NCBI GenBank assembly: GCA_046483985.1
Contig: JAWOCD010000115.1
Span: forward strand, 1 to 64,000
Direction of reading: 5' to 3'
Origin: Promethearchaeia archaeon
GTDB taxonomy: Archaea > Asgardarchaeota > Lokiarchaeia > Sigyniarchaeales > SOKP01
DNA: 64,000 bases
The position numbers were made by a program, and so were the translations under genes. The notes beneath the pieces were generated by a model. The model was not told the DNA's origin. It made no database searches and was given only the letters and a program-made list of their open reading frames with translations. Of this stretch, positions 21,194-34,177 are shown piece after piece; position 1 is the first letter of the stretch; every line of letters starts with the position of its first letter.

Positions 21194-21631
21194 ATGCAAA
21201 GTACTGAAGGAAAAATTGGAAGAGTTATTGTAGGCAAAGCAGAACCTGGGGAGGATTTAATCGATGTTGTCACGGAATTGGTGAAAAAGCATGAGATTAA
21301 AGGCGGGTTAATAAATATAATTGGAGCATTTGAAAAATTAACTATTGGATATTTCGATTTAGATACTCAAGAGTATCTCTATAAAACATTTGATGAAAAT
21401 GTGGAACTCCTTCCAACGATGGGAAATATCTCGTATAATAAGGAAACCGGGGAACCTATCATTCATCTACATACAATGGTCGGAAAGAGCAATTATAGCA
21501 TAATGGGCGGTCATTTAAGCCAGCCTTCGATAATCTCTGTCACCGGGGAAATTTTTATCTATGAATTTGACAAAAAAATCTACCGCTCCGTGGATGAGAA
21601 GTTTGATCTTACTCTTCTGGATCTGGAGTAA
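21194..21631 (+). CDS. PPC/DUF296 domain protein
   Basis: PGEDL, IGA, GNIS, IHLH, GGHL, TGEI. Confidence 0.9.
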   Translation: MQSTEGKIGRVIVGKAEPGEDLIDVVTELVKKHEIKGGLINIIGAFEKLTIGYFDLDTQEYLYKTFDENVELLPTMGNISYNKETGEPIIHLHTMVGKSNYSIMGGHLSQPSIISVTGEIFIYEFDKKIYRSVDEKFDLTLLDLE

Positions 21632-21761
21632 GTTCAGACTCCCTTCTTAATGGAAAAATAAAATATAAAAAATGTGAATCATAGGTAATATTACCTAAAC
21701 TATCATTGGAAAGGAAAAAAGAAAAAGATACTCAAGATATATATTTTTTCAGCAAGCTGAA

Positions 21762-22325
21762 ATGATCGGAGAATATAAAGGAACCGTAAGTAATAAAGTA
21801 GTTATTGCCTTACTTCAAGCATATCACGATTTGCTTGATTTTGATGGGATGAGATCTATTTTGAAGGAGGCAGAAATGCGGGAATTAATCCCAATTCGAG
21901 AGATTAATGCCAAAGAAAAGATCAGCTTTTTTAAGTTTAAAAAGATCATTTCGGCCCAGAATATGCTGCTCTATTGCGCTACCGACCTCCTGTATCAAAT
22001 CGGGCTTAAATTCTCCTTTTATCTTTTCCCGTTCGGCGAGGGATTCGAATATATAATAAAACAAATTGATAAATTGATAAAAACAGATTGGATTGTGGAA
22101 ATTGTTGAAAAACGACGTAATTTTTTTAAGGTGAAAGTCAGAAATTGTGTTTTTTGTTCGGAGATCGGAGTTGATTGTAGCCTTTTTTATGGTTTTTTAG
22201 TGGATAGTCTCCGAAAATCATTACCAAGTAATTATGAAATATCCTATAAAGTTAAAGGAGAGCATTTAGCTCCCAACGAGTCGGGACATAATAATTTTAC
22301 TATTATTCTTAGTATTAATCCATAA
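21762..22325 (+). CDS. V4R-domain-like protein
   Basis: Helical N-terminus, LYQIG, then KVRNCVFC...CSLFYGFL (V4R/HNOX/Bet3 superfamily pattern). Confidence 0.65.
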   Translation: MIGEYKGTVSNKVVIALLQAYHDLLDFDGMRSILKEAEMRELIPIREINAKEKISFFKFKKIISAQNMLLYCATDLLYQIGLKFSFYLFPFGEGFEYIIKQIDKLIKTDWIVEIVEKRRNFFKVKVRNCVFCSEIGVDCSLFYGFLVDSLRKSLPSNYEISYKVKGEHLAPNESGHNNFTIILSINP

Positions 22326-22494
22326 TCAGAATTTATAAATACTACAAAATAGAAAGATTAACTAGAAAGAGTTTTCATATCAAATCTTTAAAAAATAGAT
22401 TAAAAAATTAAATACATCAAAAATTAATTATAAAACATAAGAATATTGTAAAAAGAACTATACTTTACTATTTTCATATAAAAATTAAAATTAG

Positions 22495-23058
22495 GTGAAA
22501 AAAACTGTGGGAAATACCGAATTACGCGAGTTTGTATTTAAAATAGTTATTCTCGGTGACGCAGCAGTTGGAAAAACCTCGCTTATTAACCAGTATATTG
22601 AGGAATCCTTCAGCGAATCATATAAACCAACTTTAGGTGCGAATATCGTGAGGAAGGATGTGATGTTGGACGAGATGGACGCTAAGGTCCGTTTGATTAT
22701 GTGGGACCTAGCTGGCCAAGAAAAGTATTCTGTGATTAGATCTATGTACTTCCAAGGCTGTGTAGGTGCATTATTAGTCTACGATGTCACACGATTTAAT
22801 ACTTACGAAACCATTAATTCTCGTTGGTTAAAAGATTTTCAAAAATACGTGAAAAAGGAGGGAGCCTATATCCTTATTGGAAATAAGATAGATTTGGAAG
22901 ATAAGCGAGTAGTGAGTCTTGAACAAGGAGAAACTCTTGCAAATGAGATTAACGCAAGTGACTTTATAGAAACCAGTGCAAAAAATGGCGATAATGTAGA
23001 AAAAGCGTTCAAAAATTTAGTTCTTAAAATTCTGAAAAATGTAGAAGGAATCGATTAA
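22495..23058 (+). CDS. Rab-like small GTPase
   Basis: GDAAVGKT, YKPTLG, WDLAGQE, GNKID, ETSAK; no C-terminal Cys motif. Confidence 0.95.
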   Translation: MKKTVGNTELREFVFKIVILGDAAVGKTSLINQYIEESFSESYKPTLGANIVRKDVMLDEMDAKVRLIMWDLAGQEKYSVIRSMYFQGCVGALLVYDVTRFNTYETINSRWLKDFQKYVKKEGAYILIGNKIDLEDKRVVSLEQGETLANEINASDFIETSAKNGDNVEKAFKNLVLKILKNVEGID

Positions 23059-30789: not shown

Positions 30790-31422
30790 TTAGATAAAAG
30801 TTAAATCTTGATACTCTGATTCTGATGGAAACTTTTTTGCTAAATCCAATTTCCGGATTTCTTTGTTCAATTTTAACACAGCATCTCGCACCACTTCTTT
30901 CTTCTTTGCGCCGGTGCATACAATTCGTCCCGTGCTAAAAATGAGAAAGACTGTCTTAGGGTCTTGCATGCGATAGATTAATCCTGGAAATACCTCAGGT
31001 TCGTACATTGCAAATTCCATAACTATGGCAGCCATGTTTAGATCTACATTGGTATGCAAATCGCCCGATGCCACTATATTTTGAATAGTTATTTCTGGAT
31101 TTTCGAGGTCAATTCCTGCCTTTTTTATGTTATCTAATACTTGATCGACTACCGAGGGGGCTTCTGTTGCCTTTCGAAGGCCAGTTACTACCATTTTTCC
31201 CGTACTAAAAATAAGGATAGTAGCTCTGGGCTTTTCAATTCGCATAACTAATCCTGGAAATCGGTCTGGATTATATTCTACTTCTGGGTGTTTGCCAGCT
31301 ATCTGAGTAAGATCGATTTTGTCATCTATTTTTACTTCGACAGTTGCTACTACATTCTCAATCTTATAGTCTAAATCAGACTCATCAAATTCAACTTCAT
31401 TCTCATTATTTTCATTACTCAT
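30790..31422 (-). CDS. tbp: TATA-box-binding protein
   Basis: Two repeats: IENVVA...YNPDRFPGL...IFSTGKMVVTG and IQNIVA...YEPEVFPGL...IFSTGRIVCTG. Confidence 0.98.
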   Translation of the reverse strand: MSNENNENEVEFDESDLDYKIENVVATVEVKIDDKIDLTQIAGKHPEVEYNPDRFPGLVMRIEKPRATILIFSTGKMVVTGLRKATEAPSVVDQVLDNIKKAGIDLENPEITIQNIVASGDLHTNVDLNMAAIVMEFAMYEPEVFPGLIYRMQDPKTVFLIFSTGRIVCTGAKKKEVVRDAVLKLNKEIRKLDLAKKFPSESEYQDLTFI

Positions 31423-31641: not shown

Positions 31642-32166
31642 TTAGGAAATCTTTTTTACTATTTTTTCTGTAAGATTGATGAATGCATCCTCTACATTTT
31701 TTCCCGTCTTAGCTGAAGTAAAGATCATGTCCATGTTATATTTTTCTGCAAATTCTTTCGCTTCTTCTTCTCCGATTTTGATTTGGTTTTTTAAATCAGA
31801 TTTGTTGCCCACCAGTAATAATGGTTGATCTCCTCGGGCTTTTTTAAAACTGTTTACCCATTCATCAAGTTTTTCAAATGATTTTGTATTTGTCCGGTCA
31901 AAAATTAATAAACCACCATTCGCACCTTCTAAATATAAACTCCTTAAAGACTTGAAACTCTCTTGCCCTCCTAAATCCCAAATCTGGGCGGATACTTCTC
32001 CATAATTTTCCAACTCCATCTCCTTTTTCAATAAGTTAACGCCTAGAGTGGCTTTATAATCTTCTCTGAATTTATCTTCCAGAAATCGGTAGACCAAGCT
32101 AGTCTTCCCCACAGCAGCCTCCCCGAGCATAGTTAACTTAATAATAAATCTGTTCTTCTCTGCCAT
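31642..32166 (-). CDS. Rab-like small GTPase
   Basis: GEAAVGKT, YKATLG, WDLGGQE, GNKSD, TSAK. Confidence 0.95.
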   Translation of the reverse strand: MAEKNRFIIKLTMLGEAAVGKTSLVYRFLEDKFREDYKATLGVNLLKKEMELENYGEVSAQIWDLGGQESFKSLRSLYLEGANGGLLIFDRTNTKSFEKLDEWVNSFKKARGDQPLLLVGNKSDLKNQIKIGEEEAKEFAEKYNMDMIFTSAKTGKNVEDAFINLTEKIVKKIS

Positions 32167-32282
32167 ATCTTTTCAACTATTTTCAATTTCTTGTTAATAT
32201 AAATTTAATAAAGCAATATTATTAATAATTTTTCTAAAAACCTTATCTTATTTCAAATAAATTCGACCAAAAATTCTAAAAC

Positions 32283-32693
32283 TTAAATTCCTTCTTGGCT
32301 CTTAACTAAATAGTTGAACAAGTAATATCCGAAAATGAATGTGATCACCGTAAGTATAATGCCCACAATGAAAAAAAGCCGGTTAAAAAATATCAAGCTG
32401 AACGAGCCCAGACTGACAACTAAAAATGCAATAAAAAATTGGTAACCTTTTTTGGCCCAGAAATTGATTTTATTTGCCTCCTTTCCGATGATCTCTCGCT
32501 TTTCCTCAGGAAGTTTTTCAAAACACTCTTTGCAATATAGGCCATATTTGCCCGCAATCACTGCACATTTCAAGCACACTTCCCTCGCACAGATATCACA
32601 TGTTTTGAAGGCTGATTTGATATATTCTTGTTTACAGAGGGGACATTTCCTCAGCTTTGCTCGCAAAACCTCGTCTTCATTAACAAATGACAT
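32283..32693 (-). CDS. 8-Cys FYVE/rabphilin-type zinc finger with a C-terminal TM hairpin
   Basis: CxxC-x11-CxxC-x4-CxxC-x10-CxxC, followed by a charged helix and two hydrophobic segments. Confidence 0.7.
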   Translation of the reverse strand: MSFVNEDEVLRAKLRKCPLCKQEYIKSAFKTCDICAREVCLKCAVIAGKYGLYCKECFEKLPEEKREIIGKEANKINFWAKKGYQFFIAFLVVSLGSFSLIFFNRLFFIVGIILTVITFIFGYYLFNYLVKSQEGI

Positions 32694-32809
32694 TTTTTTG
32701 TGATTTTTTTAGTTTTTGAAAAATTAATATCGCTACTAAATGTGGTTAGTTAATAAAATAAAAAGAGATAAAAAAGTATATTGGTAATAAGTTAAAAGAA
32801 AATTTCGCA

Positions 32810-33289
32810 TTATTCTTCTTGAAATACTATCATAAATTCGCAATAATCTTTTTGCGTCTGAAGGGTGCAATTTAACTCTTGAGCGAAGCAGTGAATATTA
32901 CTCACTTTTTCGACAATCCCCGCTAACAATCCTGCTTCGAATGAGCAAAAATTCCCTTCGGTTTTGATGCCCGTGCCAATCAGATCTTTTATTGAGGAAT
33001 GTCCTTTTAATCGTAATTTTAAAATTTCTTCTGAACTCTGGGTTATTGTTGCTTCCCCAATATGATATTGATTAATAATTTCTTTCAATTTTCTGGGGAT
33101 TTGGGTAACCTCCTTTACCTTTCCCACATTTAGTATAGTCCCAAGTTCATGCCCCAAGTAATAGAAAATTGCTTCAAGCTGATGACCCAAGGCAAGAAGG
33201 GCGGCTAACTTCATATCTCCTATCTCTTTATCCTTTGCTAAATACTTTTTCATTTGGCTTAAAATCTTGCTTAATAATTGTCGGTCCAT
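32810..33289 (-). CDS. V4R domain protein
   Basis: YYLGHELG, CSFEAGLLAG, ELNC, YCEF: classic V4R signature. Confidence 0.88.
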   Translation of the reverse strand: MDRQLLSKILSQMKKYLAKDKEIGDMKLAALLALGHQLEAIFYYLGHELGTILNVGKVKEVTQIPRKLKEIINQYHIGEATITQSSEEILKLRLKGHSSIKDLIGTGIKTEGNFCSFEAGLLAGIVEKVSNIHCFAQELNCTLQTQKDYCEFMIVFQEE

Positions 33290-33332
33290 ATTTTTTTCAC
33301 ATTTTTTTTATTTAGTAATTTTTATACTTTTT

Positions 33333-33614
33333 TTAGATTTGTACTGAGGAAATAAAACCATACAAAATGGTGTCTACGATATCTTCTTTTTGGATATTTA
33401 CCGATAATCGTTTATCAGCAATGATTAAGGTTGGAACGGTATGAACGTTATATTTTTCGGTTAGTTTTCTGTTTTTTTCTATATCGATTTTTTGAATTTG
33501 CAATTTCTTTCCGAACATTGAAATATTAACCTTTTTAAGCATTTCTTCCACCGGTCGACAAGAAATACAATGTTTTGATGAGAAAAATAATATCTTCGGG
33601 TAATTTTTTGACAT
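33333..33614 (-). CDS. Thioredoxin-fold protein
   Basis: HCISC (CxxC), IDI, NVHTVPTLII (cis-Pro loop). Confidence 0.88.
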   Translation of the reverse strand: MSKNYPKILFFSSKHCISCRPVEEMLKKVNISMFGKKLQIQKIDIEKNRKLTEKYNVHTVPTLIIADKRLSVNIQKEDIVDTILYGFISSVQI

Positions 33615-33631
33615 GCTCTTGAATTATACAG

Positions 33632-34177
33632 TTAAGTCTCTTTATACAATTCATATAATTTTTCAATTATTGACCGAAACGCTTTAAAGACGCCTTCACC
33701 CGTTTTCGCTGACGTCTTATAATATCCCAGAAAATCGCGTTTATCCACTATAGATTGAACTCGCTCATCATTCAGTTCCTCCTCATCGACTAAATCTATT
33801 TTATTCCCAAATAAGACAGCTGGTTGATCTCCGCAATGCTTCATAAATTCATCATGCCATTCGCTTATATGCATATAACTTTCTTCATCTGTATGTGAGA
33901 ATACGATGATTGCTGCCTTGCTCCCCTTAAAGAACGTCCCGCGCATAAATTCAAACTCAGACTGACCGGCTATATCCCATAAAAACAACTTTACATTATC
34001 GCCATTTATATCCTCCTCATATTTCGAAAACTGAGCGCCAAGTGTTCTAATATAATCCTTTTGAAAGGTTCCTTGCGTGTATTTCTTGATCAGAGAGGTC
34101 TTGCCCACAGCGCCATCTCCTATTATGGTTATCTTAAAAACGTAGCCTCTTTCATTATCTTGCTCTATTTTGCTCAT
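33632..34177 (-). CDS. Rab-like small GTPase
   Basis: GDGAVGKT, YIRTLG, WDIAGQS, GNKID, KTSAK. Confidence 0.95.
   Translation of the reverse strand: MSKIEQDNERGYVFKITIIGDGAVGKTSLIKKYTQGTFQKDYIRTLGAQFSKYEEDINGDNVKLFLWDIAGQSEFEFMRGTFFKGSKAAIIVFSHTDEESYMHISEWHDEFMKHCGDQPAVLFGNKIDLVDEEELNDERVQSIVDKRDFLGYYKTSAKTGEGVFKAFRSIIEKLYELYKET

Follow-up and report, generated by a model that had tools for sequence, protein, structure and literature searches.

Gene organization of the locus

The stretch of DNA analysed here, hereafter the window, comprises 64,000 nucleotides (positions 1 to 64,000 of the forward strand) of contig JAWOCD010000115.1 from a Promethearchaeia archaeon (GenBank assembly GCA_046483985.1, 97% complete; contig C51 in our numbering). 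It carries on the minus strand a cluster of genes for Rab-like small GTPases and candidate partner proteins, in which three adjacent genes, encoding GTPase A, a thioredoxin and a V4R protein, form the conserved unit.

Six co-directional open reading frames (ORFs) were read on the minus strand from GTPase A to tbp: the Rab-like small GTPase A (33632-34177, 181 aa), which is the first gene of the conserved trio; the thioredoxin (33333-33614, 93 aa), with a CISC active site; the V4R protein (32810-33289, 159 aa), with a V4R/Bet3 fold and a four-cysteine site; a zinc-finger/transmembrane protein (32283-32693, 136 aa), with an eight-cysteine finger and a hydrophobic hairpin; GTPase B (31642-32166, 174 aa), likewise a Rab-like small GTPase, which is positionally mobile; and the TATA-box-binding protein, TBP (30790-31422, 210 aa; PF00352, 7.8e-57), a conserved neighbour. 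The intergenic gaps are, in this order, 17, 43, 116, 116 and 219 bp. Both 116-bp spacers are AT-rich; on the minus strand, the spacer between the V4R and zinc-finger genes (32694-32809) contains T6 and T5 runs, and that between the zinc-finger and GTPase B genes (32167-32282) contains T5 runs.

In an original prediction, made from the sequence alone, the first five of these genes had been described as a candidate proto-trafficking and signalling operon directly upstream of tbp. On re-reading of the ORFs the five genes, their gaps and their position upstream of tbp were as described, and profile searches agreed with the domain labels GTPase, thioredoxin, V4R and TBP, the V4R label through profiles below their cut-offs together with a fold model. 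Two other reported features were also found: both GTPases lack prenylation cysteines (their C-termini read ...YELYKET and ...VKKIS), and the finger has its eight cysteines, with two hydrophobic helices, each about 21 residues long, behind them.

The 4.06-Mb genome of the window contains 72 Ras-family matches, so that about three pairs of GTPase genes within 2.5 kb of each other are expected by chance; the clustering of GTPases A and B is therefore meaningful only if it is conserved. What goes beyond chance at this locus is the conservation of the neighbourhood, not the occurrence of two GTPases within 2.5 kb.

Conservation of the GTPase A-thioredoxin-V4R trio

Window proteins were placed by tblastn in 52 species loci, which come from three families of one Asgard order (families of this order are labelled f1, the window's own, f2, f3 and f4). 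The genes for GTPase A, thioredoxin and V4R were mutually adjacent in all 52 loci, with identical order and strand in 50. At the two remaining loci the trio is still together: V4R and thioredoxin are swapped in L041, and GTPase A is inverted in L054. The thioredoxin gene lies between the GTPase A and V4R genes in 50 loci and beside them in the other two. The conserved unit is a set of three genes, smaller than the five-gene operon that had been proposed; gene order is conserved for the trio and GTPase B is usually nearby, while the five genes are not one conserved operon.

When 400 genomes of the phylum were searched, the V4R protein was found in 124/134 genomes of f1, 1/1 of f2, 14/14 of f3 and 0/4 of f4, mostly as a single match per genome in the three families that have it. 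Outside f1-f3 no V4R match was obtained in these genomes except for two marginal ones (about 1e-6) in family f33. In a large protein collection the V4R protein had 346 homologues at about 70% identity, and the finger protein only 3.

The loci of family f3 include those of Promethearchaeum syntrophicum MK-D1 (V4R protein QEE16686.1 / WP_147663616.1, locus tag DSAG12_02516), Candidatus Lokiarchaeum ossiferum (V4R locus tag NEF87_005024) and Candidatus Harpocratesius repetitus. In this family the identity of the V4R protein drops to 41-48%, and the trio is intact. Of the other window genes searched for, those for CinA, TBP and DegT, which are conserved neighbours within f1, none was found within about 6 kb of the trio in f3.

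The trio might be together simply by descent, as a block of a young clade that is still unbroken and whose genes are not functionally coupled. All 52 loci belong to relatives within one order, so that part of the adjacency is inherited synteny, and this weighs against reading it wholly as a sign of joint function; the conservation of CinA, tbp and DegT beside the trio in the window's own family points the same way. Set against this, the flanks are completely replaced in f3 and the trio is still together, it survives both the internal swap in L041 and the inversion of GTPase A in L054, and its gaps are operon-like. The background of such adjacency is also low: among the 30 best-scoring Pfam V4R loci of 400 Asgard genomes, a GTPase gene was found within 1.5 kb in only 1. 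A general V4R-GTPase linkage across Asgard archaea was rejected on this count, and the linkage being confined to certain orthologue groups gives a low background rate for judging the trio. Pure synteny is unlikely, and we assign it a very small probability.

Transcription units

The gap between the GTPase A and thioredoxin genes has a median of 31 bp, and that between the thioredoxin and V4R genes a median of 55.5 bp (46 loci). Runs of five or more T, taken as the archaeal terminator signal, occurred in 3/46 of the former and 3/46 of the latter gaps, compared with 25/46 within the 80 nt after V4R, a contrast that is partly an effect of length since the internal gaps are shorter than 80 nt; per nucleotide, the rate is 3- to 6-fold higher after V4R than in the internal gaps. 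A scan of the region 30.5-34.6 kb for bacterial promoters and terminators, which is unsuited to archaea, found fewer sites than in shuffled sequence.

Judging from gap lengths and oligo-T runs, the trio is probably transcribed as one mRNA, and the finger gene, GTPase B and tbp probably have transcription starts of their own. The spacer at 32694-32809 would then probably hold the end of the trio transcript and the start of the next one. The single five-gene operon of the original prediction did not hold up: the finger gene is missing from most species, the GTPase B-tbp pair is often inverted and oligo-T runs are present in both 116-bp spacers.

The two GTPases

GTPase A matched the Ras family (PF00071) at 4.4e-42, with the motifs GDGAVGKT (P-loop), WDIAGQ, NKID and SAK, and its best solved relative was Rab23 (8.8e-39). 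GTPase B matched the same family at 2.9e-46; its best solved relatives were Thor-Rab (7ezb, 7e-35), then Rab6 and Rab11 (about 1e-34). The motifs GxxxxGKT, DxxGQ, NKxD and SAK are conserved across the orthologues of both proteins, and in 23 GTPase B orthologues neither switch I (TLGVNLLKK) nor QIWDLGGQ varies. No C-terminal prenylation cysteine (CC, CxC or CAAX) was found in either GTPase or in the orthologue alignments.

In a maximum-likelihood tree of 128 GTPases, the 52 GTPase A sequences formed one clade (support 0.88), inside which no other paralogue of the window genome fell. The GTPase B orthologues formed a separate clade, to which the MK-D1 and L. ossiferum copies, located upstream of GTPase A, also belong. 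The placement of the GTPase B gene varies: in some loci it comes directly after V4R, and in others it forms an inverted unit with tbp and converges on V4R; MK-D1, L. ossiferum and a third f3 genome have it upstream of GTPase A, and in four f3 loci it was not detected in the neighbourhood. In the family of the window the GTPase B-tbp pair changes place together, inverting as a unit from genus to genus.

Some genomes have two tandem tbp copies beside the cluster (L050:4542-5902, L018). In MK-D1 and L. ossiferum a gene for a major facilitator superfamily (MFS) transporter lies divergently upstream of GTPase B.

The thioredoxin and the V4R protein

The thioredoxin matched PF00085 at 8e-9 (35.9 bits, cut-off 23.5) and a glutaredoxin-like family at 2.9e-9, also above cut-off. 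Its profile matched solved classical thioredoxins down to 2e-10. Cysteines C16 and C19 and the cis-proline P61 are invariant in 27 orthologues, in which the active site is mostly C-A-P-C, with a proline at the third position (CxPC) in 26/27.

For the V4R protein, Pfam V4R and DUF2507 were matched only below their cut-offs. The NCBIfam profile of MsvR (NF053755) was matched at 6.7e-9 over model positions 118-236 of 236 only; the 35.8 bits obtained by this 159-aa protein, compared with a cut-off of 220, do not place it in the full MsvR family. It contains no DNA-binding domain and, since a helix-turn-helix is absent, it is not a transcription factor of the MsvR architecture. A search of 1.84 billion representatives showed a compact family, with four full-length clusters scoring below 1e-40; beyond these the scores dropped sharply to generic V4R proteins, many of them with the MsvR architecture of about 240 aa. 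The nearest relatives outside the compact family are of the MsvR type.

The AlphaFold model of the V4R protein, with a predicted local distance difference test score (pLDDT) of 92, has a V4R/Bet3 fold, and Foldseek agrees. Structural alignments spanned 106-137 residues, with Z-scores between 12 and 15: 14.8 for PoxR, 14.0 for DmpR, 13.9 for MJ1460, 12.2 and 12.0 for Drosophila and human TRAPPC subunits, 12.0 for Thor-TRAPPC3 and 11.9 for yeast Bet3 in the Ypt1-activating subcomplex (3cue). Searched against solved chains, the V4R profile matched only MJ1460 (E value 0.0026), and the TRAPPC3 chains among the solved structures gave no sequence match at E values up to 1. Compared with TRAPPC3, MsvR is nearer to the V4R protein in sequence, and PoxR, DmpR and MJ1460 are nearer to it in structure.

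Cysteines C115, C141 and C150 are invariant in 28 V4R orthologues and C134 is present in 27/28, within the motifs FCSFEAG and CFAQE. Their spacing (19/7/9) is close to that of C206, C225, C232 and C240 in Methanosarcina acetivorans MsvR (19/7/8), a correspondence drawn from the spacing and the profile match rather than from a direct alignment. In the latter protein, cysteines of the V4R domain govern DNA binding, and C206 controls its redox dependence (PMC3729527); a statement in PMC7278568, citing Sheehan et al. 2015, has oxidised MsvR re-reduced by the thioredoxin system. Thor-TRAPPC3 binds zinc via four cysteines in the corresponding region, as does PoxR (PMC10933270). By analogy with these proteins, the four-cysteine site of the V4R protein is probably zinc-binding.

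Five genomes have a V4R match that is longer by 30-40 bases, with one in-frame TAA inside (G167:C148:2903-3406, G270:C53:9873-10385, G267:C13:42562-43077, G242:C273:6201-6713 and G254:C113:20631-21143). Possible causes are a small insertion, recoding or read-through at this site, and an assembly artefact common to the five. In MK-D1 (L039:6564-6812) and L. ossiferum (L040:5613-5858) the V4R gene is followed by one for a stand-alone Lrp/AsnC ligand-binding (RAM) domain protein of about 82 aa, the two proteins being 60% identical. The longer protein P0157, a candidate V4R fusion, was rejected: it is an ElbB-like protein with a short V4R piece at its N-terminus, probably an artefact of gene calling.

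A candidate redox-gated GTPase switch

From the gene content, conservation, folds and invariant residues observed, we propose, as the best-supported reading, that the trio encodes a redox-gated GTPase switch of the thiol/zinc type, made up of the Rab-like GTPase A, a dedicated CxxC thioredoxin and a stand-alone MsvR-type V4R protein, with GTPase B usually nearby; we give this model an even chance of being correct. The V4R protein, probably a dimer, would act as the sensor and as the partner of GTPase A. Its Cys4/Zn site would hold zinc when reduced and form disulfide when oxidised, and would be reset by the operon's own thioredoxin. The state of the V4R protein would set the binding or regulation of GTPase A, and GTP-dependent signalling would in this way be gated by redox. 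GTPase B would be a second switch, loosely tied to the trio. In the minority of genera that have it, the FYVE-like finger protein, anchored in the membrane, would serve as an optional adaptor, which may tether one of the GTPases to the membrane. In favour of this model count the adjacency and phyletic pattern of the trio, its operon-like gaps, the low background of V4R-GTPase linkage, the invariant CxxC and cis-proline of the thioredoxin and the conserved four cysteines of the V4R protein, the MsvR-type relatives and cysteine spacing of that protein, the zinc sites of Thor-TRAPPC3 and PoxR, the complex prediction described below, with its weak support, and a second, independent GTPase-V4R gene pair in the order.

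The same V4R protein could instead sense a ligand: the Cys4 site would hold a structural zinc, the V4R cavity would bind a small hydrophobic molecule or lipid, and this would be relayed to GTPase A, while the thioredoxin would merely keep the thiols of the zinc site reduced or serve another client. The best structural matches, PoxR and DmpR, are phenol-binding sensor domains, and Tran et al. consider that Asgard TRAPPC3/V4R proteins, in which the zinc site tethers the sheet to a helix and so forms a cavity, probably bind ligands (PMC10933270). This explanation leaves the dedicated thioredoxin, with its invariant CxxC and its place between the other two genes in 50/52 loci, unaccounted for, and the closest sequence family is the redox-responsive V4R domain of MsvR. 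Ligand sensing with a structural zinc is a serious rival to redox gating, though in our estimate a rather doubtful one.

Complex prediction, which had been suggested as a check for each pair of proteins, covered GTPase A with V4R. With paired alignments this complex scored 0.40, the best control scoring 0.05. The mark used for such predictions was reached by 58/80 solved complexes and 2/110 mismatched pairs. Scores of 0.60 or less that still reached the mark came from only 7 of the 80 solved complexes and from both of the mismatches that passed. The runs agreed in at least 45% of contacts, and the partner had a pLDDT of at least 80. These predictions lend weak support to binding between GTPase A and V4R: they slightly raise the odds of an interaction and do not settle it.

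Apart from the relatedness of the loci and the length effect on the oligo-T contrast, several observations weigh against the redox-gated switch. A strong complex prediction for V4R and GTPase A was not obtained, and one of the three runs scored 0.01. The thioredoxin of the window itself has C-I-S-C and not the usual CxPC. Zinc at the Cys4 site may have a structural role alone, as it does in PoxR, the cavity then holding a hydrophobic ligand. Lastly, no fusion of V4R to a GTPase or a thioredoxin was found among the longer proteins, which is weak evidence.

The membrane zinc-finger gene

The finger protein has an N-terminal eight-cysteine finger (residues about 13-60) and then a two-helix hydrophobic hairpin, whose helices are separated by two or three residues. 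The eight cysteines are invariant in 8 sequences, with the pattern C-x2-C-x12-C-x2-C-x4-C-x2-C-x10-C-x2-C-F. FYVE domains such as that of EEA1 have the same x12 and x4 spacers and the same CxxCF ending.

Pfam gave no significant family for the finger: FYVE_2 was matched at an E value of 0.043 (14.4 bits, cut-off 27.2), and the best E value of the FYVE profile among the 8 members was 0.048. There is no R(R/K)HHCR motif: at the equivalent place the window has SAFKTCDIC, and the orthologues vary. With the model of the finger protein (pLDDT 86), Foldseek returned nothing at an E value of 0.001; the top match was rabphilin-3A bound to Rab3A (1zbd_B), with an E value of 0.06. In a second look (VIA), structural Z-scores over about 50 residues were 5.8 for the melanophilin SHD bound to Rab27B, 5.5 for the RIM finger, 4.9 for Vps27 FYVE, 4.7 for EEA1, 4.6 for Slp4 and 3.8 for rabphilin. 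The original prediction had pointed out that FYVE-type fingers occur in Rab effectors. The cysteine spacing and top structural matches of the finger agree with a FYVE-type finger; the weak scores, the profile matches below cut-off and the missing R(R/K)HHCR do not. On its model the finger appears FYVE-like in shape, by weak scores, and membership of the family is not established.

When 154 genomes of the order were searched with a profile, strong orthologues of the finger protein were found in about 10 genomes of 6 genera. The finger gene lies directly after V4R wherever V4R shares its contig. It is missing from the cluster in about 46/52 loci, at which the space after V4R is too short for such a gene. 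Owing to this restricted occurrence and the lack of space elsewhere, we regard the finger gene as a real but dispensable addition.

In one genome (G175, C257:771-1069) the finger orthologue is split between two reading frames and may be a pseudogene on its way to loss. At the position where the window (32693) and L001 have ATG, other orthologues have ATT (L026:2054, L048:6639) or ATC (L055:6038). In the finger genes of L026, L048 and L055 the first canonical start codon comes only after the conserved N-terminal residues and the first CxxC pair, a pattern that suggests near-cognate translation initiation of this gene in its lineage.

The presence of a finger gene beside GTPase genes bears on the proposal that the five genes form a proto-trafficking operon, in which V4R would be a TRAPP/Bet3-like scaffold acting as exchange factor and the FYVE-like finger would recruit the unlipidated GTPases to the membrane. 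Agreement with this proposal comes from the alignment of the V4R model with TRAPPC3/Bet3 at Z of about 12, including the Bet3 of 3cue, from the finger's FYVE cysteine spacing and its top matches to Rab-effector fingers and FYVE domains, from the finger gene being, when present, always between V4R and GTPase B, and from the weak support given by the GTPase A-V4R complex prediction (0.40, control 0.05). In disagreement with it, the finger gene is missing from about 46/52 loci and strong orthologues occur in about 10/154 genomes, FYVE and FYVE_2 fall far below the Pfam cut-offs with R(R/K)HHCR absent, GTPase B varies in position and strand, and oligo-T runs occur in both 116-bp spacers. No longin or roadblock protein appeared in the family look-ups made for the window cluster with its neighbours and for the L001-L005, MK-D1 and L. 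ossiferum loci, look-ups that did not extend to the rest of the genome. According to the introduction of PMC10933270 and to established knowledge, the longin pair makes most of the Rab-binding surface in TRAPP. V4R as a proto-TRAPP scaffold for Rab exchange is weakened by three findings: no longin was seen in the inspected loci, the V4R protein is nearer to MsvR in sequence and to PoxR, DmpR and MJ1460 in structure than to TRAPPC3, and the finger gene is rare. We consider the five-gene proposal improbable.

A related and bolder possibility is that the cluster is an archaeal forerunner of Rab regulation: the redox-controlled dimer of V4R/Bet3 fold would itself be the exchange factor, or a nucleotide-state lock, for GTPase A and, in some genera, the membrane FYVE-like finger would be a receptor for an unlipidated Rab-like GTPase. 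If this were true, the Bet3-Rab link and that of FYVE-type fingers to Rab effectors would predate both eukaryotes and prenylation; we think it decidedly improbable.

Other V4R-GTPase loci in the order

The genome of the window contains three Pfam-detectable V4R genes, and each lies beside a co-directional GTPase gene. On contig C66 (G000:C66:93415-95191; L057:3413-5192) a gene for a 345-aa Arf-like GTPase, extended at its N-terminus by about 170 aa, is followed on the same strand by one for a 198-aa V4R protein. This type of V4R protein was found in 62/81 genomes of the order, with the GTPase directly upstream in 28/30 loci, and the two genes are a second, independent conserved pair.

On contig C6 (G000:C6:3553-5571; L056) a 222-aa XylR_N+V4R protein, a 168-aa ORF of no family and an N-terminally extended GTPase of 292 aa are encoded co-directionally, next to a DNA methylase fragment. 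This set is present in 8/81 genomes and linked to the GTPase only in the two closest homologues; being patchy in this way, it is not evidence for a general rule.

Elsewhere in the window, a region at 21194-23058 encodes, co-directionally, a PCC (PF03479) protein, a 187-aa ORF of no family with CxxC...C, and a Rab-like GTPase. The 187-aa ORF (21762-22325), located upstream of this other GTPase gene, was considered as a further V4R protein and was not confirmed (no Pfam hit; hhalign probability 0.3).

Relation to the literature and significance

The cluster had been put forward as an undescribed module, and our literature searches likewise found no published description of the trio. Its locus tags and accessions had no mention in the main texts of papers, and for V4R, Asgard and GTPase in combination no paper was found apart from PMC10933270. 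In that paper, Tran et al. (2024) report that in MK-D1 the GTPase genes do not as a rule share operons with genes for roadblock, longin or TRAPPC3 proteins, and for this reason GTPase partners are hard to predict. The trio is an exception to this general lack of operon partners, and its V4R protein in MK-D1, WP_147663616.1, differs from both of the MK-D1 V4R/TRAPPC3 proteins that Tran et al. modelled (WP_147663132.1 and WP_147661794.1).

Asgard archaea have dozens of Rab-, Arf- and Rag-like GTPases, almost none of which has an assigned partner, and the trio is one of the few cases in which an Asgard GTPase can be matched, in a testable way, with candidate regulators. It occurs in nearly all genomes of three families, out of four sampled in its order, and in both cultured Asgard species, MK-D1 and L. 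ossiferum, so that three named, small, soluble proteins are open to direct interaction testing. Redox gating, if true, would reveal what one ancestral-type Rab-like switch senses, and a Bet3-like role of the V4R protein, if true, would bear on the origin of TRAPP.

Comparison with known systems

The finger resembles the FYVE and FYVE_2 fingers (rabphilin/Slp/RIM) in its eight cysteines, the x2-x12-x2-x4-x2 spacing and the CxxCF end, in having melanophilin, RIM, Vps27, EEA1 and rabphilin as its best structural matches, and in that its gene adjoins Rab-like GTPase genes. It differs in that the phosphoinositide-binding motifs R(R/K)HHCR, WxxD and RVC are absent, all scores are weak (Foldseek E values of at least 0.06, Z of at most 5.8, Pfam E value 0.04), the protein is anchored by its own two-helix hairpin and only a few genera have it.

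With TRAPPC3/Bet3 and Thor-TRAPPC3 (PDB 7YH2/7YH3) the V4R protein shares the fold superfamily (Z of about 12) and the link to Rab-type GTPases and, with the latter, a four-cysteine site in the corresponding region, which binds zinc in Thor-TRAPPC3; unlike in these systems, no longin subunits were seen in the cluster, and sequence matches were absent at E values up to 1.

Operons of the MglA/MglB type also encode a Ras-superfamily GTPase together with a small non-enzymatic partner protein; in the present cluster the partner has a V4R fold rather than a roadblock fold, and a thioredoxin is interposed. RsrA-SigR and Hsp33 are zinc-thiolate redox switches in which a Cys-rich zinc site is the sensor and thioredoxin resets it. 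The same combination of zinc site and thioredoxin reset is predicted, by analogy, for the cluster, whose fold and output are unrelated to theirs and in which redox switching is a proposal.

Of the systems compared, MsvR with the M. acetivorans thioredoxin system offers the closest sequence family, a nearly equal cysteine spacing and a thioredoxin that acts on a cysteine-bearing V4R domain. The V4R protein of the cluster differs from MsvR in that it carries no helix-turn-helix and that its partner gene encodes a Rab-like GTPase, DNA being the partner of MsvR; the cluster also encodes its thioredoxin within the operon itself.

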